Assembly: GCA_001468865.1 (NCBI GenBank)
Contig: LDIY01000042.1
Coordinates: 22,066 to 86,065, forward strand
Reading direction: 5' to 3'
Length of the DNA: 64,000 bases
Source: a candidate division TM6 bacterium SOIL31
Lineage (GTDB): Bacteria > Babelota > Babeliae > Babelales > Vermiphilaceae
Positions 1,429 through 57,283 of the stretch are shown piece after piece (positions within the stretch are counted from its first letter, which is position 1; each line of letters starts with the position of its first letter). The notes under the pieces are model-generated. The model did no database searches. It saw nothing but the letters and a program-made list of their open reading frames with translations, and was not told the origin of the DNA. Made by a program: the position numbers and the translations under genes.

Positions 1429-2187
1429 ATGGAAAGCATTATAAAATACACACTTCTTGCGCTATTTTTTTTCTCAAAAATTTCGGCAGATATCATAGAA
1501 AGTGATAAACTTGAAACAGTTCTTAATTATCTCGATACACCAAATACGCTCGTTATTTTTGATATTGATAATACACTAGCCCGCACCATAACAGAACTTG
1601 GCAGTGATGAATGGTTTTGTGATTTAGTGGATAAAAAGATGGCCGAAGGCCATGATTATATTACCTCTATTTACTATGCATTGCCTGCCACTTTTTATGC
1701 ACAATTTAATATTGGCTTACGGCCTACCGAAGAAGTAGCTGCAGAGCTGATAGCAAATTTAATTGATCAAAAAATCCCCGTAATGGCTCTGACCACCCGA
1801 AGCATTTTTGTAACAGAAAGAACGATGGAGCAGTTGGAAAATATCGGTATTTCATTTCTTATTCCAAGCATAAGCCAAGAAGACTTAGTTCTGCAGATGC
1901 CACATCCCTGTTTTTATCGACAAAGCATTTTATTTGGCGGCAACAATGATAAAGGAGAAGCACTGATTACGTTTTTCCATTGGATGAATTATTTTCCCAC
2001 AAGAGTCGTATTCATTGATGATAAGATGAAATATCTTTTGGCTGTTGAGAAAGCGTTAAAACACTATAATATAGAATTTGTTGGCATTCGGTACGCAGGA
2101 TGCGATGAATGCGTAAAAAATTTCGATGCTACCAAAGCTGAAGAACAGTGGAATAGGTTGCGACATAAAAAGGAACAGTACTCATGA
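1429..2187 (+). CDS. Secreted HAD-superfamily hydrolase-like protein
   Basis: ATG 1429 preceded by AGGAGG (1411-1416). Hydrophobic N-terminus. HAD motif I LVIFDIDNTLAR and late motif VVFIDDK. Confidence 0.7.
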   Translation: MESIIKYTLLALFFFSKISADIIESDKLETVLNYLDTPNTLVIFDIDNTLARTITELGSDEWFCDLVDKKMAEGHDYITSIYYALPATFYAQFNIGLRPTEEVAAELIANLIDQKIPVMALTTRSIFVTERTMEQLENIGISFLIPSISQEDLVLQMPHPCFYRQSILFGGNNDKGEALITFFHWMNYFPTRVVFIDDKMKYLLAVEKALKHYNIEFVGIRYAGCDECVKNFDATKAEEQWNRLRHKKEQYS

Positions 2188-2621
2188 ATAAAATTATAAA
2201 AAAGATCATAGTATTATGCTTGACCATGTGCTCCACAATCACCTTACGCACACACTGCATGCTCGCACAAATGCTCGCGGGAAAACAGAAATTCGGCAGA
2301 CATCCTCAGACTTTATTGCGCAAAAAAGTCGTTTTATCCCAATCCCGATTCCGCTTGCTATTTCGTCAACACCGATTTTATAATGCGGGCGTAGAAGTAA
2401 CTAATGCTCAGATTTTACTTGCGGTAGAAGAAACTAATCGTAAAATGGATGCCATTTTAAATGAAATCAGAAAACAATCTTTGCAAACACCAGTAATCAC
2501 CCCTGTCACCACAATGGCACGCAATGAAGCAGATTATAACTATAAACCCAACAATCGGCAACCAAATGAACCAAGTGAACCTGATTTATCGCAGTATAAT
2601 ATGCATTATGGCAATAGATAA
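2184..2621 (+). CDS. Small exported basic protein (leader-Met family)
   Basis: 4-nt overlap with the upstream gene. Leader ...LRTHCM followed by basic stretch LAGKQKFGRHPQTLLRKK. Resembles the 6534-8429 array proteins. Confidence 0.6.
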   Translation: MNKIIKKIIVLCLTMCSTITLRTHCMLAQMLAGKQKFGRHPQTLLRKKVVLSQSRFRLLFRQHRFYNAGVEVTNAQILLAVEETNRKMDAILNEIRKQSLQTPVITPVTTMARNEADYNYKPNNRQPNEPSEPDLSQYNMHYGNR

Positions 2622-2645
2622 CAACCACAACATATAGGCATCTTG

Positions 2646-3065
2646 ATGAACATTTACACGCTTGGCATCTTGGAACACAACGCAAAACTTTTACTTTTGC
2701 TTCGGCAAAATACAAAGTTCTTTAGCGGATATTATGGATTGATGGGTGGCAAAATTGAAGAAGATGAATCGCCTTCTGCAGCACTTATTCGTGAAACCTA
2801 TGAAGAAATAGGTATTAAAATCACAGCAGAAAATCTGCACTTTGTGCATTGTCTTTCATTCAAAAATGAAACGAATGATAAAGTTTTGGCATTAGTTTTT
2901 AAAATCATCAGCTGGCATGGTGAAACGGTAAATAAAGAACCAGACAAGTGCGCTGCACTTGCCTGGTTCTTTTATGATAATCTACCGGAAAATATTATTC
3001 CCCGTCATCGATTAATTCTTGATCACGTGAGACAATCTGAAATGTATTCTGAATGTGGTTGGTAA
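2646..3065 (+). CDS. NUDIX hydrolase
   Basis: Nudix box GGKIEEDESPSAALIRETYEEIGI. ATG at 2646 lies just inside the TTG-started ORF. Confidence 0.85.
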   Translation: MNIYTLGILEHNAKLLLLLRQNTKFFSGYYGLMGGKIEEDESPSAALIRETYEEIGIKITAENLHFVHCLSFKNETNDKVLALVFKIISWHGETVNKEPDKCAALAWFFYDNLPENIIPRHRLILDHVRQSEMYSECGW

Positions 3066-3077
3066 AGAATTATGCAA

Positions 3078-4181
3078 CTAAAGTATAGTGCATTGCTCTG
3101 CTGGCTTAACTAAATATTGTTGTCTTTTTTGTTCGAATGTTTTCTGTGCTTGTTCTTTTTTATTTAGTACACCTGTCATAATCCATGATTTTCCCACATT
3201 AAGCACATCTTCTCTATTATCTTTATATCCTATTGAATTGGTAATATATGAAAGAGTACTGTTTTTTGATGCATTTGAATCAGTACACGATAACAACGTA
3301 TCTGCAGTCTTTTCTTGCGCAGCAACTAATATTTTAAATTCTTCAGAATCACCATATTTTGGAATTCGATCAACTAAAGTAACACTATTTTTCTCGAACT
3401 CTTTTGCCTCTTGTTGCAACACAGATTGTCGATGATTAAATTCTTCTACTTTTGTAGAAGTCGGAAACCAAATTGCTTTTTTTATTTCATTTACGAGAAT
3501 CTCACTTTTATGTCGGATTTGATCTGAATCCTCTTTAAGTACCGCCACCGCATACTGGTGTACATCTCTTTCGAGCCCATGTTGCTCAACAAGATGTATA
3601 TGCTCATGCCCAAGCGCATGTTTTTGTACAAAAAGAGGTGCTCTATTTCTGAGCAAAGAAGAAATTCCCAGGTACATACCCGATATTGGCGCATTGGTCT
3701 GCATAGGATTAACTCGAGCATACGCAAGATTTCCGGGAATTTCGTCGATTCCTATATGAAAACTATGAGGGTTAGTTCCTTCTCGCGCACATTCTTCTTT
3801 TACAATGTTATATATGGGGTGAGAAGTTATTTCTGGATGGTGAATCGTATTAAAATTATTGCCCGGTTGATACAAAGCCTTTTTATTTCCTGCTTTATCA
3901 GTATCTTTTTTTGCTCTAATTTTTTGCCACATTCCATCGCTCAATCCCCAGAATTTCTTAACGCCCTCTTGCGCGGCCTTTTCGTTATCGTGTAAATAAG
4001 TTACCATATTTCCACGGTAATTTTTGAGCGCAACCTGTCCAATGGTTGATGGCGTAAAAAGAACACCCCACGAAGGCATTTGTGGCTTTTTCGGTTCATT
4101 TTCAGAGCCCATCATTGCAATAGAAACAGCCGATAAGGCAAATGCAGCGACAATGCTGCCTAAACGTACTTTTTTCATCAT
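3078..4181 (-). CDS. Exported protein with a single HExxH motif (putative Zn-metallopeptidase)
   Basis: GGGGGA RBS before ATG 4181. Signal-like leader ending SIAMM. Motif ALGHEHIHLVEQHG. Confidence 0.5.
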   Translation of the reverse strand: MMKKVRLGSIVAAFALSAVSIAMMGSENEPKKPQMPSWGVLFTPSTIGQVALKNYRGNMVTYLHDNEKAAQEGVKKFWGLSDGMWQKIRAKKDTDKAGNKKALYQPGNNFNTIHHPEITSHPIYNIVKEECAREGTNPHSFHIGIDEIPGNLAYARVNPMQTNAPISGMYLGISSLLRNRAPLFVQKHALGHEHIHLVEQHGLERDVHQYAVAVLKEDSDQIRHKSEILVNEIKKAIWFPTSTKVEEFNHRQSVLQQEAKEFEKNSVTLVDRIPKYGDSEEFKILVAAQEKTADTLLSCTDSNASKNSTLSYITNSIGYKDNREDVLNVGKSWIMTGVLNKKEQAQKTFEQKRQQYLVKPAEQCTIL

Positions 4182-4453
4182 ATGATCCCCCTATTAAAAA
4201 CTGAGAAATAGTCTTATTATCAGCCTAACAAAACTATTCAAATTGTCAATTCGGCCATAGATTGTGCCTATTTAAGGCATATTTTCGGGGACCACGATCA
4301 CACAAGAAGAAAGATAATGGATTAAAACTGACTCGTGGAATTGGCAAATCAACCTTGGGAAAAAAGGATATTTTGAGTTCAGAGATAGGTTCTATCTTCG
4401 ACTTTCTACGTTTTTTATACTATGTTGTCTTCAAAAAAACACGAAAGCCATCA

Positions 4454-5437
4454 ATGAAGTACACCAAGATAATTCACATCTTTCTCATAAATCTGTTTTT
4501 ATGCATAGCAAGCATCAAATCGGAAGGATTTATTTCTAACACTTTAATTAAAACTCCTTCAGGATATAGCACTGTCGATGCTCTTTTACTCGGCGATACA
4601 ATTGTAAGCCCTTCGGCCGATATCATACCGATTGCCCGAGTCAATCAATGCCGTTATACTTCTTGCATAAAAATCACCATGGAAGATATTTGCCTTCATT
4701 GTGCACCAGATCAAAAGTTATATTCGTATAATTATCAACAATGGATATGCGCTCAAGATTTAAAATCTACTGACTTTTTGATTGATTACCAAAAAAATCC
4801 TGTAGCTATTGATACAATCGAAATTATTAAACAAGAGTGTCTTTTCTATGCTCTTTCTTTAGATACAAACCATACCTTCTGTGTATCACCCCTTGATATT
4901 GTTGCTCACAACGCCGCCCCTATTATGGTTGTTATGGTTATAGAAACTATCGCAGAGATAGCTCCGATTATCAAAACAGGCCTTACTATTGGTGCAACGC
5001 TTCTTAGAGCTCATTTTGCAAAGAAGAGAGCTCATAAGAAATTTTCTTCAAATGCACACAATGATGTTCCATCTAATAATTATAGTTATAACTCACCAGA
5101 TCCCAATGATCCAAATAATAACCAAAACAAAGAGCATCCTCATGGCATTTATAAAGATGCTCCATATCATCACAAAAATTCGCGTCGCAAAAGCAAATGT
5201 CCTAATAATGGACAACACTGTCTTGATTATTCGCTACCAACAAAGACTAAGCAAAGAATTGCTATAGAAGGAGATTCTTTCGTAGTTCTTCATTATACAC
5301 GTCAAGGCGAATATCATGGATTTAAAGTGGATTGGAACAATTTGCATGATTCATTAAGAAGAATTCTAATTGAACATGGTTTTGTAAAAGAAACTGGAAA
5401 AATAATTAAACACATAACTGAAAAATGGCCTTCATGA
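4454..5437 (+). CDS. Hint-domain protein with C-terminal toxin-like module (polymorphic-toxin-like)
   Basis: ATG 4454 gives the leader MKYTKIIHIFLINLFLCIASIKS. Hint blocks: GFISNTLIKTPSGYSTVDALLLGDTIV, QWICAQDLKSTDFLI, FYALSLDTNHTFCVSPLDIVAHN. These are followed by a hydrophobic segment, an N/P-rich linker and a ~100-aa basic C-terminal domain (HGIYKDAPYHHKN...KSKCPNNGQHCLDYS...GEYHGFKVDW). Confidence 0.65.
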   Translation: MKYTKIIHIFLINLFLCIASIKSEGFISNTLIKTPSGYSTVDALLLGDTIVSPSADIIPIARVNQCRYTSCIKITMEDICLHCAPDQKLYSYNYQQWICAQDLKSTDFLIDYQKNPVAIDTIEIIKQECLFYALSLDTNHTFCVSPLDIVAHNAAPIMVVMVIETIAEIAPIIKTGLTIGATLLRAHFAKKRAHKKFSSNAHNDVPSNNYSYNSPDPNDPNNNQNKEHPHGIYKDAPYHHKNSRRKSKCPNNGQHCLDYSLPTKTKQRIAIEGDSFVVLHYTRQGEYHGFKVDWNNLHDSLRRILIEHGFVKETGKIIKHITEKWPS

Positions 5438-6533: not shown

Positions 6534-6794
6534 ATGAAACATATCAATCATATAGTGATTATTGCGGGAATCTTACTGACATGCGCCGACACATACAGCA
6601 TGAAAGCTCTTCAAAGATTACCCAAAAACACCCATCGCAAACCAACACCAAAAAAAGTGCATTATAGATCCAATACATCAAAGAAAAAAAAGGCTGAATA
6701 TCGCAATGAATTACGGCGACTCAATAACCAACACGAAGTAATATTTAGGTATTATCAATCATCTGCGGGTCTTTTTGAAGGCGATCCTGAATAA
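6534..6794 (+). CDS. Small exported basic protein (leader-Met family, array member 1)
   Basis: ATG 6534 after AAAAGGA. Leader ...CADTYSM, then KALQRLPKNTHRKPTPKK. Confidence 0.6.
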   Translation: MKHINHIVIIAGILLTCADTYSMKALQRLPKNTHRKPTPKKVHYRSNTSKKKKAEYRNELRRLNNQHEVIFRYYQSSAGLFEGDPE

Positions 6795-6897
6795 AAAAAC
6801 TGATTTATTTTCTTGGCTATCTTTTTTGCCAACCAACAGAAAAAACGCTATAGTTAATCAACTTAAAATATAAACAATTTTTTTTATTGGTTATTTC

Positions 6898-7308
6898 ATG
6901 ACACAAACAATCAATTTAAGCTTTTTCATACTCGCATTAATGAGCAGTACTAATACGCTTGGCATGCTTGCTATTCGTGCGTGCCACCAGTCGCATCGGG
7001 TTATTACCATCCGGCAACAGCAAAGATGGTGTAACAAAATGTCTCCCCCAGCACGCATAGAATTCATTCAAGCATTTGTAAGAGCAAATTATGAGATTGA
7101 AAAAATTATGGATCGCAATCATCAAGCAATAATGATTATGCTTGAGCAAAATAGAATCGGCCAACAAATTATTACAGCTAACTTGAAATCTATCGGAAAC
7201 CTTAAAAGCAACACCAATTACTGCGAAATATACGACATGAGAGAAGGTGTCGAATTATTTGATCAATTGGAAAAACGATTAACAAAATCAGATCAATCTT
7301 TTGAATAA
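6898..7308 (+). CDS. Small exported protein (leader-Met family, array member 2)
   Basis: Leader ...STNTLGM, then LAIRACHQSHRVITIRQQQRW. Confidence 0.65.
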   Translation: MTQTINLSFFILALMSSTNTLGMLAIRACHQSHRVITIRQQQRWCNKMSPPARIEFIQAFVRANYEIEKIMDRNHQAIMIMLEQNRIGQQIITANLKSIGNLKSNTNYCEIYDMREGVELFDQLEKRLTKSDQSFE

Positions 7309-7317
7309 GGAAAAGTA

Positions 7318-8025
7318 ATGAAAAAAATAATTATTCTCGGTACTATTATCACTACGATCAGCAGCAATAATGCATTAGCAATGCTTTTACTCGGCCGCCT
7401 TAAGCAAACTCCAAAGCGACCATTAATAATAATGCAACAGCAAAGATCGACATATCCACCATCAAAAAAAATAGTCACTACCACCCCAAATATATTTAAT
7501 ACCCCTCTCAATTCTTCATCCGATGATACTATTAAAGAACTTTTGAAAGATCATAATAAGAGAAATGAGAAGCTTAAAATACTATTGGCTGCCCACAAAA
7601 AATCATCGCAACTTATTGAAGGAGATGTGGCCGAGCAAACAAGCATTATTAATAATACATTGTCTCTTGGTCAACCTGTCCCTGTTGCTGCCCTTGATGA
7701 AATAGAAAAGCGACTAAGAAATCGTATCGGCGAGCATATATCATTGGGGGGTGCCATTATACAAGAAGCTGATCGTCTTCATAAAATAGAAACAACAAGA
7801 AGCATGTCGAACGAGACAACTATATTCAATGCTCAAATAGACTCTCTCCCAAAAAACGAGGTCTATGGCTTACTAGAAGATCTTTATGACAGAAATCAAT
7901 CAATTGCTAAAGTGATAGAAACGCAGCAAAATATAGCAGTAGACCATACATTTTATGAGGTCCCTTTAAATATGGAGCGCTTGAAAGAAGCAGAGATGAC
8001 ATTAAAAGATCTGCTCAAAGAATAG
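7318..8025 (+). CDS. Exported protein (leader-Met family, array member 3)
   Basis: AAGGAAAAG before the ATG. Leader ...SNNALAM, then LLLGRLKQTPKRPLIIMQQQRS. Confidence 0.65.
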   Translation: MKKIIILGTIITTISSNNALAMLLLGRLKQTPKRPLIIMQQQRSTYPPSKKIVTTTPNIFNTPLNSSSDDTIKELLKDHNKRNEKLKILLAAHKKSSQLIEGDVAEQTSIINNTLSLGQPVPVAALDEIEKRLRNRIGEHISLGGAIIQEADRLHKIETTRSMSNETTIFNAQIDSLPKNEVYGLLEDLYDRNQSIAKVIETQQNIAVDHTFYEVPLNMERLKEAEMTLKDLLKE

Positions 8026-8036
8026 AAGGAATGTTA

Positions 8037-8429
8037 ATGAAAAAATTCATTATTTTTATTTTATTGTTATCAAGCACTCATAGTGCACTGAGCATGTTCC
8101 GCTACATTCGCTTTGCTCAAACACACCCTCGCACACAGCCTTTACGTGCAAAACTTGTTTGCACAAAACCAATCGCTCCCCCGCACAATGAAATACTTGA
8201 GTTACTTAAAACCATTAAGGAACAAAATGAGACTCTTATCACACAAAACCATCGATTTTTTGAAATACTCAGTAACGAATTTCATTTTTCTAAGATAGAT
8301 TATGAGGGAAGAAAATATCTCCGCGAATTTTACAAAAAGAATAATATTGATTTGTGTGTTGATGACAGTTATGGATATAATCCAAGAACCACTGGTTATC
8401 GAAATGATGGTTGGAACTCTCCATACTAA
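8037..8429 (+). CDS. Small exported protein (leader-Met family, array member 4)
   Basis: ATG 8037 is 6 nt after AAGGA; ATG 8031 is too close to it. Leader ...THSALSM, then FRYIRFAQTHPRTQPLRAK. Confidence 0.65.
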   Translation: MKKFIIFILLLSSTHSALSMFRYIRFAQTHPRTQPLRAKLVCTKPIAPPHNEILELLKTIKEQNETLITQNHRFFEILSNEFHFSKIDYEGRKYLREFYKKNNIDLCVDDSYGYNPRTTGYRNDGWNSPY

Positions 8430-11998: not shown

Positions 11999-12472
11999 AT
12001 GTATAAAAAACTACTTTTTTGCCTTACTACCCTTGCTCTATCAACAAATGCTCTTCAGGGAATGAAAAAAAACCCAAATATACCTCAGAAGGATAGTCGG
12101 TTTACCAGTAAATTTCCCAACATTAAGTTACCTCTCGGCCTCAAAGCTGCTCTTAAAGGTGGTAAAAATGGCGCAATCGCTGCCTTTTTAGTCGCTTTAC
12201 CTTCTATTGGACTTCTTGATGGTTCTCTCAAAGAAAAATTAGCTTTGCCTTTTTTGAGCGGATTTGCAGGAGGAATAATTGGCATTCTTACCAGTGGGCT
12301 TTCAACATTTCTTCCAACTGGAAATGAGGGTTTTACTTATACCCAGTCAACGGCAATAAAATTTCGAGCACAAGGAGTAGGAATAGGCGTTGGTAGCATG
12401 ATTGGGTTAGCTGCACTTGGTTATTGCTATTCGCTCAACAAATTAGAAAACTTCCGCATTTTCAACCCATAA
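11999..12472 (+). CDS. Gly-rich membrane protein (leader-Met family)
   Basis: ATG 11999 after AAGGAG. Leader ...STNALQGM. Gly/Ala-rich hydrophobic segments. Confidence 0.65.
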   Translation: MYKKLLFCLTTLALSTNALQGMKKNPNIPQKDSRFTSKFPNIKLPLGLKAALKGGKNGAIAAFLVALPSIGLLDGSLKEKLALPFLSGFAGGIIGILTSGLSTFLPTGNEGFTYTQSTAIKFRAQGVGIGVGSMIGLAALGYCYSLNKLENFRIFNP

Positions 12473-15219: not shown

Positions 15220-15789
15220 ATGAACAACAAAATTCTTCTACTGTATAGTTTGCTCGTTATTCCTTATGTTGGGTTCGGCATGGAAGAGAAAAGCACAACT
15301 ATAGGTTATTTTTCGGGATGTCATGAGAGAGATTTAGCAAGCATTAAAAAACTACCGATACTCCAACAAGAGGGATTATTCTGCAATAAACTCTATAAAC
15401 CCGCAATCAAAGCACAACCTAGCTTTGAAGAAGATCGCGATAAGATGTATACTTTTGCCGCGCACTACAATAAGCAAACTAAGGTAGCAGTAATATATCT
15501 CAACGACATGGTCGTAGAACGCATTCGTGTGTATGACAATCCAGCTATTCCTATTGAGCTCTCGCCCGATAAATCTATTTTTATCTGCGTAAAAAAATAC
15601 AATCAACAGGTAGTAGGATACAAAGTTGACAAAGTAACAATAGCATCGGAACTCTCTTATCTTGATAAAGCGACCAAATTAGAAAAACCACAGACATCCC
15701 ACTGGCCCACAACCATTGCAGGTTTTTTGTACGGCTCTGTGCTCACCGCAACGTTGGTAATTATCTACAATGAACTATATCTTACATAA
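15220..15789 (+). CDS. Hypothetical exported protein with C-terminal TM anchor (leader-Met family)
   Basis: ATG 15220. Leader ...PYVGFGM. C-terminal hydrophobic TIAGFLYGSVLTATLVIIY. Confidence 0.6.
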   Translation: MNNKILLLYSLLVIPYVGFGMEEKSTTIGYFSGCHERDLASIKKLPILQQEGLFCNKLYKPAIKAQPSFEEDRDKMYTFAAHYNKQTKVAVIYLNDMVVERIRVYDNPAIPIELSPDKSIFICVKKYNQQVVGYKVDKVTIASELSYLDKATKLEKPQTSHWPTTIAGFLYGSVLTATLVIIYNELYLT

Positions 15790-18168: not shown

Positions 18169-18720
18169 ATGAAGCATCTCATACGAATTCTATTCCCCCT
18201 CATCATAAGCGCCGTAGTAAGTACTACGTATTGCTTAGAAAATTTTGATATCTGTCTTAAATCAAAATGGCGGGAACTTGATAACAACTGTGATAGATGT
18301 ACCAACTTTGGAGGAAAATGGGTAGTTGTAGGCAGCATCACTTTCAAAAAAAGATCTAAAGAACCGATCGCAGTAGATGCTATTAACCTTCATTGGCATG
18401 GCGAAAGACTTAATCAGCTAATCGGATCTTTGTATAGAAAAATACCCGGCAAAGACTTTTTAGCTCTGGAAAGTAACTTGGTTTGCGATGGTGTTTGGAA
18501 TGAAAAAAAACAAACACTGATGTTTGATTTCGATGAAAAACAAAACTTGGGTCCCACGACCGTTTTTTATTTAGTTCTTACCATGCCTTCTTCGATCGAA
18601 CCCATTCTTAAAAATGGCTATTTTTGCCTAGAAAATGACTGTCTACCTCGCCCATTTAAGCATTCCATTCAGCATGAAAAGCTCTTCTTAGCCATCAATG
18701 ACGCTCATCCTAAACACTAA
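18169..18720 (+). CDS. Hypothetical exported protein
   Basis: Long ORF with a hydrophobic leader; no recognisable domain. Confidence 0.6.
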   Translation: MKHLIRILFPLIISAVVSTTYCLENFDICLKSKWRELDNNCDRCTNFGGKWVVVGSITFKKRSKEPIAVDAINLHWHGERLNQLIGSLYRKIPGKDFLALESNLVCDGVWNEKKQTLMFDFDEKQNLGPTTVFYLVLTMPSSIEPILKNGYFCLENDCLPRPFKHSIQHEKLFLAINDAHPKH

Positions 18721-18885: not shown

Positions 18886-18932
18886 AATATCAACTTGGCC
18901 ATATAAGGTGGCCTCAAAATATACGGGTGATC

Positions 18933-19196
18933 ATGAAACATTATAGAGTTCTTGGACTTGATTCTTTGGCTACATGGGATGAAATTAAAACTGCATACCG
19001 CGCATTGGCGATGAAATACCATCCAGATCGTAATCCTGGAGACGCTGCCGCGGAAGCAAAATTTAAGCAAATCCAAACTGCATACGATGTCCTAGAAGAA
19101 CGAAAACATCAACGCACCCCTAAATTAGACGGCCTCCGCTCACCAAAGCCTAAAAAACCTGAAGCTGAAGTGATGGCAGAGGAAGAGACTGAATAA
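18933..19196 (+). CDS. Small J-domain-only protein
   Basis: [34 protein letters not shown], followed by a short basic tail. Confidence 0.8.
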
Positions 19197-19260: not shown

Positions 19261-20403
19261 ATGAACAAAACAGACTATTATAAAGTATTAGGCGTCGGCC
19301 AATCAGCTACAACAGATGAAATTAAAACAGCATACCGCAAACTTGCTATGAAATATCATCCTGACCGTAATCCTGATAATAAAAACGCCGAAGAAAAATT
19401 TAAAGAAGCAACCGAGGCTTATGAAGTGCTCGGGGATGCACAAAAACGTTCTCAATATGATCAATTTGGTCATGCTGGCATGAATAATAATGGCATGGGT
19501 GGTGGTGGACATGGACACCCCGGCAGTATGAATATGGATGATATTTTTGAAAACTTTGGCGATATCTTTGGTTCTATGTTTGGCGGCGGCGCTGCTAAAA
19601 ATCGCCGTAAAAAAGGTCCTCAGCCACAGGCTGGACTTTCGCTCACTAAAGAAATTGAAATTACCCTCAAAGAAGCTTTTCTAGGCACTAAAAAAGAAAT
19701 TGCATATCATCACTATTTCTGTTGTGATACTTGCAAGGGAAGTGGCGCACGTCCTGGAACCAGCGCGCAAACATGTACCACCTGTAATGGTTCAGGTGAA
19801 ATGCACTTTAAACAAGGCTTTTTCATGTATGCGCAAGCGTGCGGAGCCTGCTCTGGAAAAGGTTTCATTATTGCAACACCATGCTCAACATGTAATGGAC
19901 AATCACGCGTGCAACGCTATGACAAATTTACCGTTAATATTCCTCAAGGTATTTTTGATAATGCAGAGCTTCGTGTTTCTGAAAAAGCTGATGCTGGCCT
20001 TTTTGGCGGTCCAGCGGGAGATCTCTTTTTACGTATCAACGTTAAAGAAGATAAAACATTTAAACGCGATGGCGATGATTTAATTTGTAACGTGATGCTC
20101 ACCTACCCTCAACTCACTCTTGGTTGCCAAGTGGATATTGAAAATATTGATGGAACAAAACATACCATCAAAATCCCAAAAGGGTGCCCGGTTGGTGAAA
20201 AAATAGTGATTTCTAACGAAGGTTTTCCTAAACTTCGCGGTAAAACTCGCGGTAATTTAATTATTATCACGCAATGCTTTATCCCTACCAAAATATCTGC
20301 TGATGCAAAAAAGAAGCTTCAGGAATATTCTGACATTGTGGGAACTCAGGCTAGTGGTAATGATGGATTTATCACGAGCTTCTTTAAGAAATTCTTGGGG
20401 TAA
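19261..20403 (+). CDS. dnaJ: Molecular chaperone DnaJ (type I)
   Basis: J domain with HPD, G/F-rich region, four CxxCxGxG zinc-finger repeats, C-terminal substrate-binding domains. Confidence 0.95.
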
Positions 20404-22155: not shown

Positions 22156-22569
22156 ATGATGAAAAAAGTATCTTTAGTTCTTTTAACTGCAGTAATTGGC
22201 TGCCTGAGCATTACCAGCCACATGAATGCTACCGATGAAATCTACCTAAAAAATGAATATGGCGCTCCTCTGACCTGTAAGTTTATGGAACCAGGACAGA
22301 ACACCCCGGCAACGAAAGAGGAGAAAATTGTGGGAAATGGGCAAAGTCTGTTTTTAATGAAGACTAGTGGATTACCAGGTATAGTCGATATTTGGATAAC
22401 AACAGGAGGAGGGGTAATGTCGATTATCAATCGCTTGGAATTACTCAGTACTCTCTCTACAATCATAAACCACAGTCAAGGCAATAAAAATACCTATGCC
22501 GTCATCACAATCAAGCCAAATCGTTGGACGTGGCAGGTAGAAACAACTTATACCAATATTAAACCATAG
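22156..22569 (+). CDS. Hypothetical exported protein (leader-Met family)
   Basis: AAAGGAG RBS. Leader ...CLSITSHM. Confidence 0.65.
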   Translation: MMKKVSLVLLTAVIGCLSITSHMNATDEIYLKNEYGAPLTCKFMEPGQNTPATKEEKIVGNGQSLFLMKTSGLPGIVDIWITTGGGVMSIINRLELLSTLSTIINHSQGNKNTYAVITIKPNRWTWQVETTYTNIKP

Positions 22570-48340: not shown

Positions 48341-49083
48341 TCTTTATCCTTATCTCTTTTTTTTAAACCTTGTTGCGGTTGTTTGACATACAGATCAAAT
48401 TGATCATGTAACTTTTTAATATAAATGTTGGCAAAAATGCACACGCTAATGGGAAGTAACAATGCAGCAATTAAATTAATCGCTAGAGGAATCTTTGGAG
48501 CAAGCGCAATATCATATGAGGTCAACATTTGCGCAATCAATTGATTGCCTGTCCAACTCGATAGATAAACCACTGCTCCAATAGGTATAACGAGCGGTAA
48601 ATTAAATACCACCATTTTTATTGCATTCCATATTGATAAGAGAAAGTTCTTAAGCCCACCTTCAGAATCGGCAAAGAAAAGAACAGTAAATATATATCCA
48701 TAATAGCTAACCGATGACCACGAAAAAATGGGCACAAATAACCAATACAAAATAATTCTTCCCAATTGTGTATGAAAATAATGCCAGTCCTTTTGAGCAA
48801 TTGAAGGCCGAGTGCTCAAACAACTAGCCAAAAATAATAACTCGAATAACCAATAAGTTATCCGAGTGACACTTAAAATGGCATCTGTCCTCTCCATAAA
48901 AATACGATTGGACAGATCAGGATTAATAAAACATATCCCCATCAATACTATTACCCACCAAAAATAGCGGAAATATAACTTATATACTTCTATTATTGAT
49001 TTAATGGTAACCATTACAAAAAGTTGTAAATTCTTTGGTTTCAATAGCGTCAGTGAGTCGATCCATGATTGAATGAGGGTCAT
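48337..49083 (-). CDS. Polytopic membrane protein, tandem paralogue A
   Basis: MTLIQSWIDSLTLLKPKNLQLF... ...ANIYIKKLHDQFDLYVKQPQ. 4-nt overlap with paralogue B. Confidence 0.7.
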   Translation of the reverse strand: MTLIQSWIDSLTLLKPKNLQLFVMVTIKSIIEVYKLYFRYFWWVIVLMGICFINPDLSNRIFMERTDAILSVTRITYWLFELLFLASCLSTRPSIAQKDWHYFHTQLGRIILYWLFVPIFSWSSVSYYGYIFTVLFFADSEGGLKNFLLSIWNAIKMVVFNLPLVIPIGAVVYLSSWTGNQLIAQMLTSYDIALAPKIPLAINLIAALLLPISVCIFANIYIKKLHDQFDLYVKQPQQGLKKRDKDKE

Positions 49084-52014: not shown

Positions 52015-52023
52015 TGTATTAAG

Positions 52024-52066: not shown

Positions 52067-52092
52067 TACTTATCATTTTAACTTTATTTTAT

Positions 52093-53121
52093 TTATTTAG
52101 TCCCATATTCTTTCTCATACAACCTTTTCAAATAATCGGCGCTCTTTCTTATTTTTATAACGTCTTCTTCCGATAAAAATCCCTTTGCAACCAGTTTGCT
52201 CAGCTTTGCGGGATCAAAATTATTCATAAATTTTTCATATTCCGCACGAACATAGCTAATATATTTCTCAGGCTCAACGTTATCGCCGAACGAAAATAAA
52301 TTCAAGCACTTCCTCAAAGAATTCGGTTCTAATTGAATTGGTTTATGCGGTTGAGCATTATATTTGGCATACGCTTCTTTTAAACGTTTTCCATACAATA
52401 TTGTCCTAGAAACATCTTCCTGTGACAATTCTCCCTTTTTTACTTCTTCTTCTATATTTTGGGGGTCATAATACTCAATCTGCTTAATATACTCATTATG
52501 AATCTGTTGATCTGATGCATCTTCTGGCAATTTTAAACGTTTTTGTATGGATTTTGATGCTAAACTATCTATATTGTCTAAAATCATCATATATGCTTGA
52601 ATGACAAATTTATTTCTCCCCACCAACATGAAACGATAAGGAGATCTTCTCCATACATCTTCAATATTGTCGAAGTATTGGATTTTTAATTTCAGATTCT
52701 CCACAGCACTTTTAAGTTCAGAAAACCCACTTGTATCGAAAAAATCTCCCGATTGATTTTTTTTATATTTATTATAATCATCGATTGAATCATAAACAAT
52801 GAAGGGCTTATCAATAATATCTTTATATCGATTTATAAAATTACTATAATTGTGCACAAACTTATCCACAGCTGATTTTGTCCAAGGAATCCATGTTTTC
52901 TTAAACAGACTATGTATATATGAATTAGTTCCTATATACATACGCCGTACACGATCCTGAGTGGTTAATCTCTTCCACGATACAACCCAATCAGGAAGAT
53001 AATCAGTAAATTTGCGTGGATTGAGAATAATCTCATAAGAATTGTTTGCTTGTATTTGCATTGAAGATAAAGTTACAAACACACCCATTCCAAATAAAAT
53101 TTTTTTTATTATCATTGTCAT
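52093..53121 (-). CDS. Hypothetical exported protein (leader-Met family) with two C-terminal internal repeats
   Basis: Leader ...VTLSSM. Two ~55-aa repeats: ...YYDPQN...GELSQEDV...LKEAYAKY and ...NFDPAK...GFLSEEDV...LKRLYEKEY. Confidence 0.65.
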   Translation of the reverse strand: MTMIIKKILFGMGVFVTLSSMQIQANNSYEIILNPRKFTDYLPDWVVSWKRLTTQDRVRRMYIGTNSYIHSLFKKTWIPWTKSAVDKFVHNYSNFINRYKDIIDKPFIVYDSIDDYNKYKKNQSGDFFDTSGFSELKSAVENLKLKIQYFDNIEDVWRRSPYRFMLVGRNKFVIQAYMMILDNIDSLASKSIQKRLKLPEDASDQQIHNEYIKQIEYYDPQNIEEEVKKGELSQEDVSRTILYGKRLKEAYAKYNAQPHKPIQLEPNSLRKCLNLFSFGDNVEPEKYISYVRAEYEKFMNNFDPAKLSKLVAKGFLSEEDVIKIRKSADYLKRLYEKEYGTK

Positions 53122-53204: not shown

Positions 53205-53236
53205 AGAAAAAGGCTGATAAATTCAGCCTTTTTCTT
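53205..53236 (-). terminator. Rho-independent terminator
   Basis: AAAAAGGCTGA-ataaat-TCAGCCTTTTT. T-run on both strands. Confidence 0.7.
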
Positions 53237-53273
53237 AAAATTTAGGTACTTCTTCTTAAGCTAGTAATCAATC

Positions 53274-53720: not shown

Positions 53721-53830
53721 TGAAACTCCTATTGCATCAAAAAAAATAACACTTTAATAGTGTAGCGCCAATATTTATTAAAGTATAAGGGTTATAAATC
53801 TTGATTGCTTGTTAGAAATTTTTATGGAAT

Positions 53831-54259
53831 TTATTCGGATTCTTTTTTCGGTGGTTCTATCTTGAATACATTTTTGTCTGGCAATTGCGGTGTAACAGGA
53901 CTCGAAGGAACAAAATAATTCTGTACATATTCCCATGCTTTTTTTAATCCAGGAACAAATCTATCAACTCGGATTAAGAAAATTGGTATTCCAATAGCAT
54001 AACCCAAAGATATCCACATGGCAGTTCTTGCTAAAGACGAAGCCGTAGGCGTCAAAATATCTTTTCTCCAGGTTGGATCATTCCATTGTCGCGGTTCTGT
54101 TAAAAATTTTTTATGGGTCACAAGACTTTTTGGTAAAGGAACTTGTTTTATTCGCGCAGATCCCGTCTTGAGTAACTCCCTCATAGCGTGTACAGGAAAG
54201 GTACTACCAACAAAAATCAACACAAATAAAATCTTCTTCTGTTTCATTGATTTTTTCAT
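53831..54259 (-). CDS. Small membrane/exported protein (leader-Met family)
   Basis: Leader ...STFPVHAM, then RELLKTGSARIKQVPLPKS. Has a later TM segment. Confidence 0.6.
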   Translation of the reverse strand: MKKSMKQKKILFVLIFVGSTFPVHAMRELLKTGSARIKQVPLPKSLVTHKKFLTEPRQWNDPTWRKDILTPTASSLARTAMWISLGYAIGIPIFLIRVDRFVPGLKKAWEYVQNYFVPSSPVTPQLPDKNVFKIEPPKKESE

Positions 54260-54339
54260 AAAAGTAGACCCTTATTTTAAAATAGTTTATATCCTTATGC
54301 CTATTATAAAATAAAGGTCTTAATCAATTAAAATACAAT

Positions 54340-56355
54340 TTACTTCAACCGCACGCCATTCTTCACTAACTCAGGAAATTGCACCACCCGGGAATTACCA
54401 TTTTCATCTTCTGCAACAAGCATCATCCCTTGCGATTCCATTCCTGCCATTTTACGCGGTTTTAGATTGGTGATAAATAATCCTCGTTTACCGATAAGTT
54501 CTGCTGGCTCATATGATTTTCTGATGCCTGCTAAAATGGTGCGTTTACCCATACTACCAAGATCAACAGTCATCTTAAGTAATTTATCGGAACCTTCCAC
54601 TGCTTCGCATGCTTCAATGGTCCCAGTATGTAATTCAACTTTCATCACATCATCAATAGTAATGTAATTATCTTGTGATACTTTTACTTCTTCTTGCGGT
54701 AACATCGATTGTCCTTCTTCTATCGGTTCGGGCCCACCGTCGCTAAAGCTATGGCGGACTTCGCCTGTAGCCTTGGCTAAGGCTTGCTTTTCAAACAATG
54801 TTGGAATTTTTTTCAAGGTAAATGTTTTATTCCACTTACATAAATCATCTATGTTTTTGAATGCATGTTCTTCTAATTTAAACCTTATTCCAAGACTGAT
54901 AAGCAACTCTTCCATTTTATGTGGCATTACTGGCCATAATAAAATAGCAATCATATACAAGCTATGACACGTATCGGAAAGTACCGTCATAAACATCTGC
55001 GGATCAGTTTTAGCAATTTTCCATGGTTCCACCTCGTGAAAAGATGTATTTGTTGCATGAATAAATTTCCACAGTGTTGCAAGCGCATGATGGAACATAT
55101 AATTATTCATATGGCCAGCAAATTCTTCGACTAAAACAAAAGCATCCGCATTCAAACATAGTGAGCTAACTCTAGTCATACCTTCTTGCGGCACAACGTG
55201 CATCACACCATGCTTTTCTGCCAATGCAACCATACGATTCAATAAATTACCTAAATCATTGGCGAGATCAGATTCAATGCGGTTTTCAACATCAGCAATG
55301 CTAAAATCACCATCTTGGTTGATCGGAATTTGGCGTAATAAATAATATCTGATTGGATCAGTACCATATTTTTTCTGCAATTCAATTGGATCAATCACAT
55401 TACCTAAAGATTTTGACATCTTTTGTTTATCAACCTTAATCCAACCATGCACTAATAATCTTTTTGGCAGTGGCAAATCAGCAGCCATCAAAAGCGCGGG
55501 CCAATAAACCGCATGAAAGCGAATAATATCTTTACCCAAAACTTGTACATCTGCGGGCCACCATTTACGCAGTTCATTTTCACAACCTGGTTGACCGTAA
55601 CCAACACCCGTGATGTAATTGGATAATGCCTCTACCCACACATAAATAGTATGCAATGGATCTTGTGGAAACGGCACCCCCCAACGCACGGTTGTGCGAG
55701 AAATGCTTAAATCTTTTAATCCTGATTCAACAAAACTGGTAACTTCATGAGTGCGTTCTTTTGGTGCAATAAAATCAGGATTATTTTGGTAAAATGCAAG
55801 AAGTTTATCGGTGAACGCTGATAATTTAAAAAAGTAACTTTCTTCAGAAATGATGTGCGTATCACGTCCACATGTTGGGCATGATGGTCCTTGCACCACT
55901 TCTGTGCCCTTCGTAGCCTCTGGCGAAGTAGGGTCCTCCGTGATTTCTGCAACAAACGTTTCGCACGGCGTGCAATACCACCCTTTATAGACTGATTTAT
56001 AAATGTAACCTTTATCGATCAAAACGGTGACCAGATGCTGCGCCCCTTTAATATGATACTGATCAGTTGTACGCATAAACTTATCATATTTAATATCGTA
56101 AAGTTGCCATGCATTTTTAAAATCAGGAACAAAGCTATCAATAAAATCTTTAGGAAGTTTTCCCGCTTTTTCTGCTGCTTGTGCTATTTTTTGCCCATGC
56201 TCATCTGTGCCTGTTAGGAAAAAAACATCTTTACCTTGCAGTTTATTCCAGCGCGCAAGCGCGTCAGCAAGCAATGTTGAATAAAGTGACCCTAAGTGGG
56301 GCTTTGCCGTAACATAATAAATGGGGGTTGTTACATAAAATTTATTTTTTGCCAT
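54340..56355 (-). CDS. metG: Methionine--tRNA ligase with C-terminal tRNA-binding domain
   Basis: HIGH-type PHLGSLYS, KMSKS, C-terminal EMAP/Trbp111-like domain (KLLKMTVDLG). Confidence 0.96.
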   Translation of the reverse strand: MAKNKFYVTTPIYYVTAKPHLGSLYSTLLADALARWNKLQGKDVFFLTGTDEHGQKIAQAAEKAGKLPKDFIDSFVPDFKNAWQLYDIKYDKFMRTTDQYHIKGAQHLVTVLIDKGYIYKSVYKGWYCTPCETFVAEITEDPTSPEATKGTEVVQGPSCPTCGRDTHIISEESYFFKLSAFTDKLLAFYQNNPDFIAPKERTHEVTSFVESGLKDLSISRTTVRWGVPFPQDPLHTIYVWVEALSNYITGVGYGQPGCENELRKWWPADVQVLGKDIIRFHAVYWPALLMAADLPLPKRLLVHGWIKVDKQKMSKSLGNVIDPIELQKKYGTDPIRYYLLRQIPINQDGDFSIADVENRIESDLANDLGNLLNRMVALAEKHGVMHVVPQEGMTRVSSLCLNADAFVLVEEFAGHMNNYMFHHALATLWKFIHATNTSFHEVEPWKIAKTDPQMFMTVLSDTCHSLYMIAILLWPVMPHKMEELLISLGIRFKLEEHAFKNIDDLCKWNKTFTLKKIPTLFEKQALAKATGEVRHSFSDGGPEPIEEGQSMLPQEEVKVSQDNYITIDDVMKVELHTGTIEACEAVEGSDKLLKMTVDLGSMGKRTILAGIRKSYEPAELIGKRGLFITNLKPRKMAGMESQGMMLVAEDENGNSRVVQFPELVKNGVRLK
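54731..54785. repeat. Hairpin-repeat unit embedded in-frame in the metG linker
   Basis: Contains TCGCTAAAGCT (identical to 37820-37830) and CTATGGCGGAC (compare CTACGGCGGAC at 37570-37580). Encodes ALAKATGEVRHSFSDGGP. Confidence 0.6.
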
Positions 56356-57283
56356 GTTTTTTTCGTTTCATTTGTTTTGTGTTTTTTTGTTGAAGTATCT
56401 TTTTTTCAAGAGTTTCAATGCGCTTGGCGTTCATTTTATTATAAATATAACCTTCAATTTCCGTGAACGTTATCAACATCGTTTTATATCTGATAAAATG
56501 CACCGCCTCTTCAAGAGGGGTTATTAATCGAGCACCAGCATTTTTTCTGCATGTTTTCATCTGGGCTCTTTCAGTAAGTTCTTTAATATCAAACCAACGA
56601 GCAATATCTTCTGCTTTCTTTTGATCGTTATCGAAATATATATCTACTAAATATTTTGCTATTGTTAAGTATTCATGCCGTAAATCACTTATCGCATCCT
56701 GTACCTTATCTGCATTACGCGCAGAAAGATCAGGAGAGATACCTGTAGCATACAACGATGAAAAACCTATCGTCATGCTTCCAAACCAAGAAACTGCCGC
56801 CGGCGTTAAAATGGTTGATGCTGAAGACAAACAATCATGTAATGTTCCATTAACACATTGCAAAAAACTCACCGCCGAAACAAAAGGAAATCCCGAGGCT
56901 GCAGTAATAATTACACCATTAATCCAAAAACACCGTCCCACCCACTGCTTTATTCCTTCTGCACGATCAAATTTCTTTTGTTGCACACAGGTAAAGAGTG
57001 TTTTTGATTTGTTACCTTCTTTGCTTATGGTGGATAAATAGAGTAAATGCTCCAATGAAGAAGCATTCGAATGTAAGCAAGATTGTGCTTTAAGTGATTC
57101 TCTTAATTTTTGCAAACCTGCAATATCAGGAATATTTTTAATTTCTTCACTATATCTATTGCACCACAGACTTTGCCGCGGTGGTATATTCACCAAAATG
57201 TCGTTACGTTCTATGGGTTGCATAGCATAAAAAGAATGCATGCACACTACCATGATGAGTAAAAAAGATCTCACATACCGCAT
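56342..57283 (-). CDS. Hypothetical membrane protein (leader-Met family)
   Basis: Leader ...CMHSFYAM. Central hydrophobic region. 14-nt overlap with metG. Confidence 0.6.
   Translation of the reverse strand: MRYVRSFLLIMVVCMHSFYAMQPIERNDILVNIPPRQSLWCNRYSEEIKNIPDIAGLQKLRESLKAQSCLHSNASSLEHLLYLSTISKEGNKSKTLFTCVQQKKFDRAEGIKQWVGRCFWINGVIITAASGFPFVSAVSFLQCVNGTLHDCLSSASTILTPAAVSWFGSMTIGFSSLYATGISPDLSARNADKVQDAISDLRHEYLTIAKYLVDIYFDNDQKKAEDIARWFDIKELTERAQMKTCRKNAGARLITPLEEAVHFIRYKTMLITFTEIEGYIYNKMNAKRIETLEKKILQQKNTKQMKRKKHGKK

Follow-up and report, generated by a model that had tools for sequence, protein, structure and literature searches.

Classical Sec signal peptides cut by signal peptidase I follow the von Heijne -3,-1 rule and consist of a basic n-region, a hydrophobic core of 10-15 residues and a polar c-region, with small residues at -3 and -1. 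The leaders described here have the same build and LepB is encoded in the same window, while the difference lies at +1, where classical sites have only a mild Ala excess and the Dependentiae class has a Met under selection. Lipoproteins are also an exported class defined by an invariant first mature residue (+1 Cys of the lipobox), and in the lipobox, the +2 'Lol avoidance' rule and the lipoprotein export signal of Bacteroidota the new N-terminal residues set the final destination. The Dependentiae leaders differ from these in having Met and not Cys at +1, residues -3 to -1 which fit signal peptidase I and not the L-[AS]-[GA] lipobox, no expected lipid modification, and soluble ORFans and repeat proteins as cargo. 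The T2SS-linked class III leader of type IV pilins and T2SS pseudopilins (G↓F or G↓M, PilD) gives a defined +1 residue that is sometimes Met, and a link to type II secretion genes is shared by the present leaders; however, prepilins have a conserved Glu+5 and are cleaved ahead of their hydrophobic segment, whereas the hydrophobic core here comes before the site.

Bipartite plastid signals of diatoms and cryptophytes (ASAFAP, +1 Phe) expose on cleavage a +1 residue heading a second, organelle-type targeting peptide, which is like the basic 'ML' subclass described below, but they are eukaryotic and use Phe instead of Met, and in Dependentiae the amphipathicity is weak and organelle targeting hypothetical. 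Plasmodium PEXEL/HT and oomycete RxLR proteins carry a signal peptide and then a short conserved element which marks the host-targeted secretome, and cleavage of PEXEL makes a defined new N-terminus needed for export. Both belong to eukaryotic parasites and the ER pathway with a dedicated protease (plasmepsin V), whereas the Dependentiae signal would be a single residue at a bacterial signal peptidase I site.

The phytoplasma SVM signal is a conserved signal-peptide motif on divergent Sec-dependent effectors (SAP11/SAP54 type) of an obligate intracellular bacterium (PMC8026896). It is likewise lineage-specific, with a conserved leader and variable cargo, but no +1 Met rule was reported for it (PMC8026896), it has no sequence relationship to the Dependentiae leaders, and no match to its Pfam family (PF12113) was found at E<=0.01. 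Since Dependentiae are diderm, they need a second export step, unlike SVM effectors.

Leaders in the 64-kb window

The window, which is the whole 64-kb stretch of DNA analysed, comes from an intracellular parasite of the phylum Dependentiae (Babeliales), in agreement with the TM6/Dependentiae guess made earlier. It contained 17 ORFs for which the preliminary description had claimed a leader ending in Met at residue 20-26. The translations agreed, since every start coordinate was an ATG and every claimed tetrapeptide ended in Met within that range. All 17 leaders had a basic n-region and a hydrophobic core followed by small-x-small↓Met, with the n-region of the leader at 6898 uncharged and an atypical His at -1 in the one at 22156. 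No Pfam domain was found in any of the 17 listed proteins, those at 2184 and 4181 included. Below, leader sequences are in lower case, and SD pairing is given in kcal/mol, for the leader start and then for the internal Met.

Leaders of the basic 'ML' type were those of a 145-aa ORFan (2184..2261, plus strand, mnkiikkiivlcltmcstitlrthc↓MLAQMLAGKQ, SD -5.6 and +1.9), a 136-aa ORFan (6898..6966, plus, mtqtinlsffilalmsstntlg↓MLAIRACHQS, SD -2.2 and +0.7) and a 235-aa ORFan (7318..7383, plus, mkkiiilgtiittissnnala↓MLLLGRLKQT), the last belonging to a family with only 3 members among 5.8e9 proteins, in which the Met is invariant. The basic type was also present in an 86-aa ORFan (6534..6602, plus, mkhinhiviiagilltcadtys↓MKALQRLPKN), a 130-aa ORFan (8037..8096, plus, mkkfiifilllssthsals↓MFRYIRFAQT, SD -5.7 and +0.7) and a 142-aa ORFan (54182..54259, minus, mkksmkqkkilfvlifvgstfpvha↓MRELLKTGSA).

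The remaining leaders belonged to ORFans of 367 aa (4113..4181, minus, mmkkvrlgsivaafalsavsia↓MMGSENEPKK, SD -9.3 and -1.7), 157 aa (11999..12064, plus, mykkllfclttlalstnalqg↓MKKNPNIPQK, SD -7.9 and +1.6), 189 aa (15220..15282, plus, mnnkilllysllvipyvgfg↓MEEKSTTIGY, SD -0.9 and -3.1), 297 aa (30541..30618, plus, mkntltgtfslvslallaapsiiys↓MEQNIMAIKN, SD -4.2 and +2.9), 341 aa (32343..32411, plus, mirlssldiflsllltmfasht↓MEPEHKITLN, a member of a 16-member family), 158 aa (33427..33492, plus, mtafksltalmflvahitvtc↓MEQDSRNAET), 130 aa (38264..38329, plus, mkkyiiiaaiaflffgtqlna↓MRDRKKEDQF), 131 aa (38713..38778, plus, mrniymllfigslffsyelqa↓MDQKDKEDTF), 342 aa (53059..53121, minus, mtmiikkilfgmgvfvtlss↓MQIQANNSYE) and 313 aa (57221..57283, minus, mryvrsfllimvvcmhsfya↓MQPIERNDIL), and to a 137-aa protein (22156..22224, plus, mmkkvslvlltavigclsitsh↓MNATDEIYLK) whose L001 and L007 homologues were without Met. 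The gene equivalent in position to 33427 in locus L096 encoded TTAC↓MENKQ, and the 38713 ORFan, in tandem with 38264, is its apparent paralogue. For 4181 the motif SIAMM was correct, but the relevant Met is the first one, residue 23, directly after the small residue. Among the listed leaders, start usage was least clear at 15220.

Housekeeping exported proteins had been said to lack the motif, which was true of the OMP (61164) and the Cys-rich protein (58405) and wrong for BatD. The BatD-domain protein (PF13584, 1.9e-23) starts at 43826 on the minus strand with the leader MVKIVGKFLLCVFLGCVATFLNAGIS (43746..43826) followed by MSV, and brought the motif cases in the window to 18.

Geometry, cargo and conservation of the Met site

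Cleavage sites were called blind to +1 from the -3/-1 residues alone, a crude rule and not SignalP. The sequence covered was not of whole genomes but of about 0.9 Mb at two syntenic regions (the window, 11 related genomes and 80 distant Dependentiae metagenome loci). Met was more frequent than any other +1 residue in the window (8/22, 36%), in the close relatives (14/85, 16%) and in the distant loci (33/216, 15%, p=3e-20), and it had also ranked first in an earlier version of the prediction (23/90, p=1e-18). The same pipeline on 200 kb of E. coli K-12 gave Met at 1 of 39 sites, with Ala on top. The Dependentiae pattern greatly exceeds chance, and AT-rich codon usage cannot account for the excess because the baseline was the Met frequency of the same genomes (2.1% at internal positions).

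Along leader-like ORFs, Met reached its maximum at residues 21-23, with about 10% per position. It was preceded by A/G/S/C in 45/61 cases (background 20%, p=4e-19), the -3 residue was S/I/T/A/L/V, and the residue following the Met was E/D/N/L in about 64%. The motif reads roughly N-N-[S/I/L]-[F/L/Y]-[S/G/C/A]↓M-[L/E] in the clade of the window and [S/A/V]-x-[A/G/T/S]↓M-[E/D/N] in distant Dependentiae. By this geometry, the Met is the predicted +1 residue of a signal peptidase I-type site.

Blind +1 Met was found in 49/171 ORFans and in 0/121 conserved exported proteins. About 30-40% of lineage-specific exported proteins had the Met, and the majority of ORFan leader proteins (about 60-70%) were without it. 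The median number of other loci with homologues was 0 for Met-class proteins and 16 for the remaining leader proteins (p=1.6e-14), and Met frequency by family was bimodal, with 0-3% in big conserved families and Met at the leader end in 0/24 aligned members of a conserved exported anchor family. Ten large Met-class proteins included three with ANK, two with WD40 and one with Sel1/TPR repeats. In 23/25 pairs from tandem arrays, conservation was higher in the leader than in the cargo, and the reverse was seen in a conserved exported family. The Met marks a lineage-specific, fast-evolving secretome of small tandem-array ORFans and ankyrin/WD40/Sel1 repeat proteins, while conserved envelope and periplasmic proteins are without it. 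Ankyrin and ORFan proteins with signal peptides have been viewed as effectors secreted into the host in Babela (PMC4378268) and Chromulinavorax (PMC6561590).

Of 15 cross-genome pairs, 13 kept the ATG, where neutrality would predict 3.2 (0/200,000 simulations reached 13), and neighbouring residues in them were 15-62% identical. In the 16-member family of 32343 (25% mean identity) the Met was invariant, as were only two other columns. It was not absolute, since some orthologues have Val or Ser in its place (6534 versus L001_766, which has TQC↓VTPR; L006_16897 versus L004_16942). The Met is thus under purifying selection, as an amino acid and not as an initiation codon. The earlier proposal of a lineage-specific sorting or cleavage signal therefore stands as far as sequence goes, in its signal peptidase I +1 site, its lineage-specific cargo and its Dependentiae-wide occurrence, with further support from the selected Met and the E. 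coli control without Met excess.

Candidate export route and readings of the Met

A signal peptidase I gene (LepB, S26 family, 39164..40138, minus strand; PF10502, 5.5e-34) with a visible catalytic-Ser motif (TGSMETTM) was identified in the window, and its product is the enzyme expected to cut the Met leaders. A type II/IV secretion ATPase gene of the T2SSE family (34623..35846, minus) adjoins the ORFan array at 32343-34528, and PF00437 T2SSE was found at the same position in the syntenic loci L096 and L098; this system is a candidate for the second-step export route. Linear N-terminal signals are not known for T2SS substrates, which counts against this route. In Babela, T2SS was the sole secretion system detected (PMC4378268).

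The leaders would be true signal peptides of the Sec type, processed by signal peptidase I, with Met at P1' and hence at the start of the mature exported protein. Once Sec export and cleavage have exposed it, this N-terminal Met could be read as a tag by a later step, most likely by the bacterium's own routing of Met proteins out of the periplasm, which fits the T2SS-adjacent arrays, and second most likely by the host. Our main reading, a class-specific and lineage-specific variant of the Sec signal peptide, cut before Met and tagging a putative effector secretome, is given a probability of roughly 0.6.

A possible but clearly less probable reading is that the export machinery ignores the Met, which instead makes the mature effector resemble, at its N-terminus, an ordinary primary translation product (Met-Glu/Asp/Asn or Met-Leu) once it is in the host cytosol, for host N-terminal acetyltransferases, organelle import receptors or N-degron avoidance. 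The Met class does include eukaryote-like ANK/WD40/Sel1 proteins, E/D/N/L do prevail after Met, 'stabilising' +1 residues (Met counted) were found in 96/171 ORFan leader proteins against 35/121 conserved ones, and Chromulinavorax replicates free in the host cytoplasm, wrapped by the mitochondrion (PMC6561590). Against it, a protein would escape the Arg/N-degron pathway just as well with Ala, Ser, Thr, Gly or Val in first place, and among non-Met proteins these residues were not significantly enriched in ORFans (39% versus 29%, p=0.14). In addition, Met-Leu without acetylation acts as a degron of its own in yeast and mammals, and mitochondrial import does not require Met.

The basic subclass, presequence-like in composition, bears on the host as second candidate reader in the main reading and also on this host-side alternative. 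It made up 26% of the Met class and 3% of the remaining leader proteins (p=3e-10); 15 of 24 had 'ML', so that about a quarter of the Met class resembles, in its exposed 'ML' and basic, acid-free stretch, a eukaryotic N-terminal targeting peptide; leader and Met-initiated segment would here act as a bipartite signal. The amphipathic-helix signal was weak (z=0.44), with a moment no higher than in shuffles. As Sec export is normally hindered by basic residues early in the mature protein, the subclass may differ in behaviour and may be, for example, membrane anchors.

It is unlikely that the Met is a fossil start without present function, left where a leader was added upstream of the native ATG of a leaderless ORF. 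Such a footprint would make the mature protein equal to the original product, and it agrees with the concentration of Met in young or fast-evolving genes and with leaders acting as semi-independent modules in arrays, but not with strong purifying selection on the ATG. None of three apparently leaderless relatives was demonstrated to start at the Met, as they reflected a gene-caller mis-start, a contig-end truncation and a leader-like stretch without ATG. Mature parts matched other leader+Met proteins 39 times and non-leader ORFs four times, the latter including local repeat-domain matches (e.g. ankyrin). No SD remnant was left upstream of the Met, the region being SD-poorer than random internal ATGs; DNA similarity ran without a breakpoint at the ATG, and the following residue was unlike that of native starts.

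An internal alternative start, by which one gene would yield both a secreted protein and a cytoplasmic isoform without leader, had also been suggested and is now very improbable. It would account for the ATG conservation, gene callers sometimes pick the internal ATG (P0047), and at 15220 SD pairing is somewhat better there. However, SD pairing at the internal ATG averaged +0.5 kcal/mol, weaker than the -1.2 of random internal ATGs, while leader starts (-3.5) were like ordinary genes (-3.6), and 0/17 internal Mets reached -4 kcal/mol. GTG and TTG occurred 1 and 2 times among 323 site codons against 55 ATG, though they make up 15.5% of SD-backed starts, Lys was the next residue in 5% of cases, compared with 34% for true starts, and the small -1/-3 residues would be left unexplained.

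The artefact reading, in which the leaders are untranslated AT-rich sequence open by chance and the Met is the true start, or the pattern itself is chance, is essentially refuted: Lys/Asn/Ile/Phe/Leu-rich peptides are readily encoded by AT-rich DNA and a few distant-locus cases are of this kind (the epimerase-like ORFs L066_3636 and L077_4566, in whose relatives the Met is the start), but SD motifs precede the leader ATG and not the Met, a tripartite n/h/c structure with small -3/-1 residues is present (p~1e-19), leaders are kept in frame across orthologues, and the E. coli control gives the pipeline floor.

No published description of the +1 Met signal was found in a literature search. Under the main reading, a tagged Sec signal peptide variant, the +1 Met rule, which was not seen in ordinary bacteria as represented by the E. 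coli control, may flag the host-directed proteins of the parasite.

Leaders ending before methionine

The preliminary description had reported 17 exported proteins in the window whose leader ends in a Met at residue 20-26, and this held throughout: 17/17 start coordinates were ATG, the tetrapeptide named for each protein was seen in its translation with Met at residue 20-26, and the ORFs opened by these codons encoded 86-367 aa. The OMP, the Cys-rich protein and BatD had been described as lacking the motif. Its absence was confirmed in the first two, whereas the BatD leader (start 43826, minus strand; PF13584) read ...FLNAGIS/MSV (the slash marks the predicted signal peptidase I cut), which brought the window total to 18 cases.

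The leaders, found by hydrophobicity alone, had an uncharged hydrophobic h-region followed by a polar, N/S/T-rich c-region, as in Sec signal peptides. Net charge of residues 1-8 was at least +1 in 16 of the 18 window leaders and 0 in two, those of the 136-aa ORFan starting at 6898 and the 341-aa ORFan starting at 32343, and the second residue at leader starts was Lys in 49%. The leader-end Met stood at median residue 22 both in the window's clade and in distant loci. The -1 residue was A, G, S or C in 45/61 leaders (20% background, p=4e-19) and the -3 residue was S, I, T, A, L or V in 52/61, a pattern which places Met at P1' of a signal peptidase I-type site. The extended motif read N-N-[SIL]-[FLY]-[SGCA]/M-[LE] for the window's clade; for distant loci it was [SAV]-x-[AGTS]/M-[EDN]. 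A signal peptidase I (Peptidase_S26, PF10502, E=5.5e-34) was encoded at window 39164-40138. The assignment of these leaders as Sec-type signal peptides, with a predicted signal peptidase I cut before Met, was supported.

Other types of export signal were rejected. The +1 residue was Met and not the Cys of the lipobox L-[AS]-[GA]-C of a lipoprotein (SPase II) leader; Cys, where present, stood at -1, and the residues preceding it (H, T or S, for example) did not fit a lipobox. No RR, as expected of a Tat signal peptide, was present in any of the 18 window leaders. In a type IV prepilin-like leader a Gly end is followed by a hydrophobic segment after the cut, with Glu at +5; here the hydrophobic core preceded Met, and polar or charged sequence came after it. 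The phytoplasma SVM signal (PF12113) had no match at E<=0.01 among the 17 proteins.

About 0.9 Mb of sequence was sampled, centred on two syntenic regions. GyrB of the window shared 96% identity with its counterpart in one uncultured MAG and 55-90% with those in MAGs that carry the label Candidatus Dependentiae or Babeliales, and the GyrB scan gave 11 syntenic loci (L001-L011) as close relatives. The distant set consisted of 80 further metagenome loci anchored on the conserved exported protein, specific to the lineage, that starts at window 18169; the anchor was 38-81% identical in these loci. E. coli K-12, in four pieces of 50 kb, was the negative control. Leader-like N-termini were picked by charge and hydrophobicity only. 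A loose criterion (Met in the leader end plus a small -1 residue) scored about 10% even in E. coli (5/46) and could not separate the distant Dependentiae from this control, so it was replaced by a blind +1 test, in which a hand-made cleavage rule used the -3/-1 residues alone and ignored +1.

Met frequency in the leader-like N-termini peaked at residues 21-23, with about 10% per position against a background of 2.1%. In the blind test Met was the commonest +1 residue in the window (8/22), and it was found at 14/85 sites in the close relatives and 33/216 in the distant loci (p=3e-20), counts which include paralogues and are not independent; in E. coli Ala was on top and Met occurred at 1/39. 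The leader-end Met rule was thereby confirmed and extended from the window to the phylum. Literature searches found no published description of it, and the papers on Babela (PMC4378268) and Chromulinavorax (PMC6561590) do not mention it; as far as could be found, the rule is an undescribed variant of the Sec signal peptide.

In one Babeliales MAG locus (L009, GyrB 63% identical to the window), 0/9 leader-like ORFs had a convincing leader-end Met, while L010 and L011, about as far away or farther, do have it. In some lineages, such as that of L009, the rule may be rarer or have been lost.

Purifying selection on the leader-end methionine

At four-fold degenerate sites of GyrB the window was 41-58% identical to L001-L008, so a neutral ATG would persist in roughly 7-20% of comparisons. 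Retention was scored family by family and on best cross-genome hits; in an all-pairs version the large conserved families, with their occasional Met members, had drowned the signal. Among 15 cross-genome best-hit pairs, matched by mature region only (mean identity 49%), Met was retained in 13 against 3.2 expected, a number reached in 0/200,000 simulations, and the residues flanking it in those pairs were just 15-62% identical. For the 32343 family, a deep profile search among 1.84 billion representatives found 12 relatives, and the leader/Met arrangement was present in every leader-bearing member; in an alignment of 16 members, whose mature parts had 25% mean identity (minimum 9%), Met was one of three invariant columns. 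The residue is not absolute, since some orthologues have Val or Ser there. These comparisons of sequence showed the leader-end Met to be under purifying selection.

AlphaFold2 gave a mean pLDDT of 35 for the 32343 family, too low to use. The C-terminus of the 32343 protein (window 33300-33365) reads ..KRPFDL..NRQI...KKRRL[LI] and was invariant in four homologues whose identity is otherwise 57-77%; it resembles a basic C-terminal signal, either NLS-like or a putative secretion or retention motif.

Capture of a leader at a native start could be the origin of the leader-Met arrangement, and the Met might then be a purely historical relic of that event. The relic idea is argued against by the purifying selection on Met, by the lack of any SD remnant before it, by the lack of a DNA breakpoint at the ATG, and by the fact that no leaderless relative was demonstrated among the relatives checked. 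Three relatives of the 32343 family had seemed leaderless. For P0047 (L096:2926-3945) the public gene call begins at the internal Met (MEIETC...), although the full leader, MNLLIKLSLTSIFFSLLSASCALNA, is present in frame immediately before it; P0057 was truncated by a contig end. P0055 (L098:2230-3135 and L099:39-944), identical in sequence in two samples, has a leader-like stretch ..IIKNFLFVLPFLFINSISLA/MNEK.. without ATG and with a stop codon just upstream, and could be a pseudogene, a gene that uses a rare start codon or a leader in decay. An in-frame Met at the leader end gives mis-started gene calls, as in P0047, and hidden leaders in MAG annotation. The secretomes of Dependentiae are probably undercounted, because automatic annotation drops leaders at the invariant Met.

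An internal alternative start, one of the two readings offered in the preliminary description, found no backing. Mean anti-SD duplex energy was -3.46 kcal/mol at leader starts and -3.64 at other genes; at the leader-end ATG it was +0.51 kcal/mol, a weaker value than the -1.20 of random ATGs in frame, and -4 kcal/mol was reached by 13/17 leader starts and 0/17 internal Mets. SD-backed true starts in these genomes are GTG or TTG in 15.5%; the codons at the blind +1 site were 55 ATG, 1 GTG and 2 TTG, with GTG/TTG at or below background. Lys followed Met at 34% of true starts vs 5% of leader ends (p=7.5e-10). With no RBS, no interchange of ATG, GTG and TTG and a downstream codon that was not start-like, this reading was rejected; the weak SD, the scarce GTG/TTG and the rare Lys point to selection on the amino acid, and the leader-end Met is, as far as sequence can tell, not a hidden start codon. 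A spurious 5' extension of the ORFs was contradicted by the SD energies, by the residues at -3/-1 and by leaders being conserved in frame.

Two constraints on the nucleic acid were also rejected. For a cassette or recombination site, the only nucleotides conserved within +-18 nt were the ATG and, in the -1 codon, the second base, and the DNA similarity of tandem paralogues, highest at the RBS and leader start, decayed gradually without a break at the ATG. For an RNA-level constraint, the -1 codon in the window and L001-L011 ended in C in 27/49 cases (21% genome-wide), with GGC in 10/12 Gly, TGC in 8/9 Cys and 'GCATG' in 23/49; the C-ending bias was not replicated in the independent metagenome set L012-L091 (8/44 vs 10.6 expected) and was treated as a clade or paralogue effect.

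Proteins and gene arrays with the motif

No Pfam or NCBIfam domain was found in the 17 window proteins, nor any curated N-terminal signal model, and two of them had only 3-4 relatives among 5.8 billion proteins. Over 92 loci, the median number of homologues in other loci was 0 for proteins of the Met class vs 16 for other leader proteins (p=1.6e-14). Families, made by clustering leader proteins on mature-part homology, were bimodal, with 20 lacking Met members and 8 all-Met; the large conserved ones (72, 40, 24, 13 and 11 members) had 0-3% Met, and singletons had it in 57/144. In the blind +1 test Met was present in 49/171 ORFans (lineage-specific proteins) vs 0/121 conserved leader proteins (p=1.6e-13), and in the anchor family it ended the leader in 0/24 aligned members. 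Ten large Met-class proteins outside the window included three with ankyrin repeats, two WD40 propellers and one Sel1/TPR protein. Eukaryote-like repeat proteins are considered host-secreted in Babela and Chromulinavorax, and most have signal peptides (PMC4378268, PMC6561590); type II was the sole secretion system detected in Babela (PMC4378268).

The anchor protein itself (window 18169-18720, 183 aa, exported, without Pfam domain) had 39 homologues, and its relatives in two collections came only from Dependentiae-like contigs. With 25 invariant positions (W34, C106-D107 and W110, for example) and a leader that is never Met-ended, this family is a good phylogenetic marker.

Two hot spots of leader/Met genes were observed. 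The first, in syntenic position, lay between sufC and the gene for the T2SS ATPase and held anywhere from 1 to 6 leader/Met ORFan genes, depending on the locus (window 32343-34528; L096:1133-6458; L098:2296-3135, the latter two on contigs with 32343-family relatives), and all six consecutive genes in L096 read small/ME. Upstream of gyrB, tandem arrays of 4-7 small leader/Met genes (86-235 aa) were present (window 6534-8429; L001:766-4761; L003:3091-6257; L004:3136-6351 in close relatives); most belonged to a basic 'ML' type whose C-terminal half was coiled-coil-like, with a recurrent ..LL..I.EQN..L. In a distant locus (L082:5405-8728, anchor 45% identical), six tandem genes of 68-122 aa all had A-x-A/M leaders, with Asn after Met in 5/6 (MNE, MNG, MNN, MNS, MNK) and Ala in one (MAV), and their cargos were acidic, Pro/Gln-rich and probably disordered.

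In tandem arrays the leader was more conserved than the cargo (identity 0.38 vs 0.22; leader higher in 23/25 pairs, p=3e-5), and a conserved exported family had the reverse pattern (0.29 vs 0.49). The same conserved leader and variable cargo are known from phytoplasma SVM effectors (PMC8026896).

Other neighbours in the window were two adjacent overlapping membrane-protein paralogues of 243 and 248 aa (47609-48340 and 48337-49083, minus strand), whose near-identical N-termini (MTLIQSWIDSLTLLKPKNLQLF...) suggest a recent tandem duplication, and a stand-alone J-domain ORF of 89 aa (18927-19196) immediately upstream of full-length DnaJ (19261-20403), with a motif common to both.

Possible reading of the exposed methionine

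The sequence after Met came in two flavours. A basic subclass (0 D/E and at least 3 K/R in the 20 residues after Met) made up 24/92 of the Met class vs 3% of other leader proteins (p=3e-10); it was mostly 'ML' (15/24), had a median length of 132 aa and was confined to the window's clade, and the remaining proteins were mostly ME, MD or MN. Sec substrates usually prefer a neutral or acidic early mature region, from which the basic subclass departs. Its composition resembles a eukaryotic N-terminal presequence, with the N-terminal placement following from the predicted cut, whereas its helical hydrophobic moment did not stand clearly above that of shuffles (mean z of 0.44, with 21% above z=1). 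The resemblance is of interest in view of Chromulinavorax, which is wrapped in the host mitochondrion as it replicates (PMC6561590).

Simple avoidance of N-degrons found no support as a rationale: among non-Met proteins, small 'stabilising' +1 residues were present in 39% of ORFans vs 29% of conserved proteins (p=0.14), which is no significant excess.

The geometry of the +1 site, the selected Met and its restriction to the fast-turnover, putatively host-directed secretome across Dependentiae supported the other reading of the preliminary description, a sorting or cleavage signal. Since the first residue of these mature soluble proteins is invariant and selected, something would read the processed N-terminus, which to our knowledge is known in bacteria only for lipoproteins; their sorting by the first mature residues is a precedent for the reading of Met-1. 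Cleavage would expose Met-1 as a neo-N-terminal tag, and a later step would read it. The main rival puts the reader on the host side, which would require a 'primary-translation-like' N-terminus on the mature effector. The parasite's own post-Sec routing is preferred as the reader, since, in the window as in syntenic loci, leader/Met arrays adjoin the gene for the T2SS ATPase. In the joint reading, to which we would give about one chance in four, the Met exposed by SPase I is an unrecognised sorting code for soluble proteins, a specialised factor in the periplasm or outer membrane reads it and routes effectors to the host through T2SS or vesicles, and the 'ML' plus basic subset of one clade is a bipartite Sec and organelle signal, perhaps for the host mitochondrion.

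Dependentiae, obligate intracellular parasites of protists, form a widespread phylum that is almost wholly uncultured; they remodel the host mitochondrion. As many as 44% of their genes code for proteins that carry a signal peptide (PMC6561590). Small-x-small/Met would give a cheap, phylum-wide predictor of candidate effectors from sequence only, and this one-residue rule would set conserved envelope proteins apart from the fast-evolving secretome of ORFans, ankyrin and WD40 proteins. The rule could be used in practice for effector prediction and gene-start calling, and it suggests that a sorting or host-recognition step awaits discovery.
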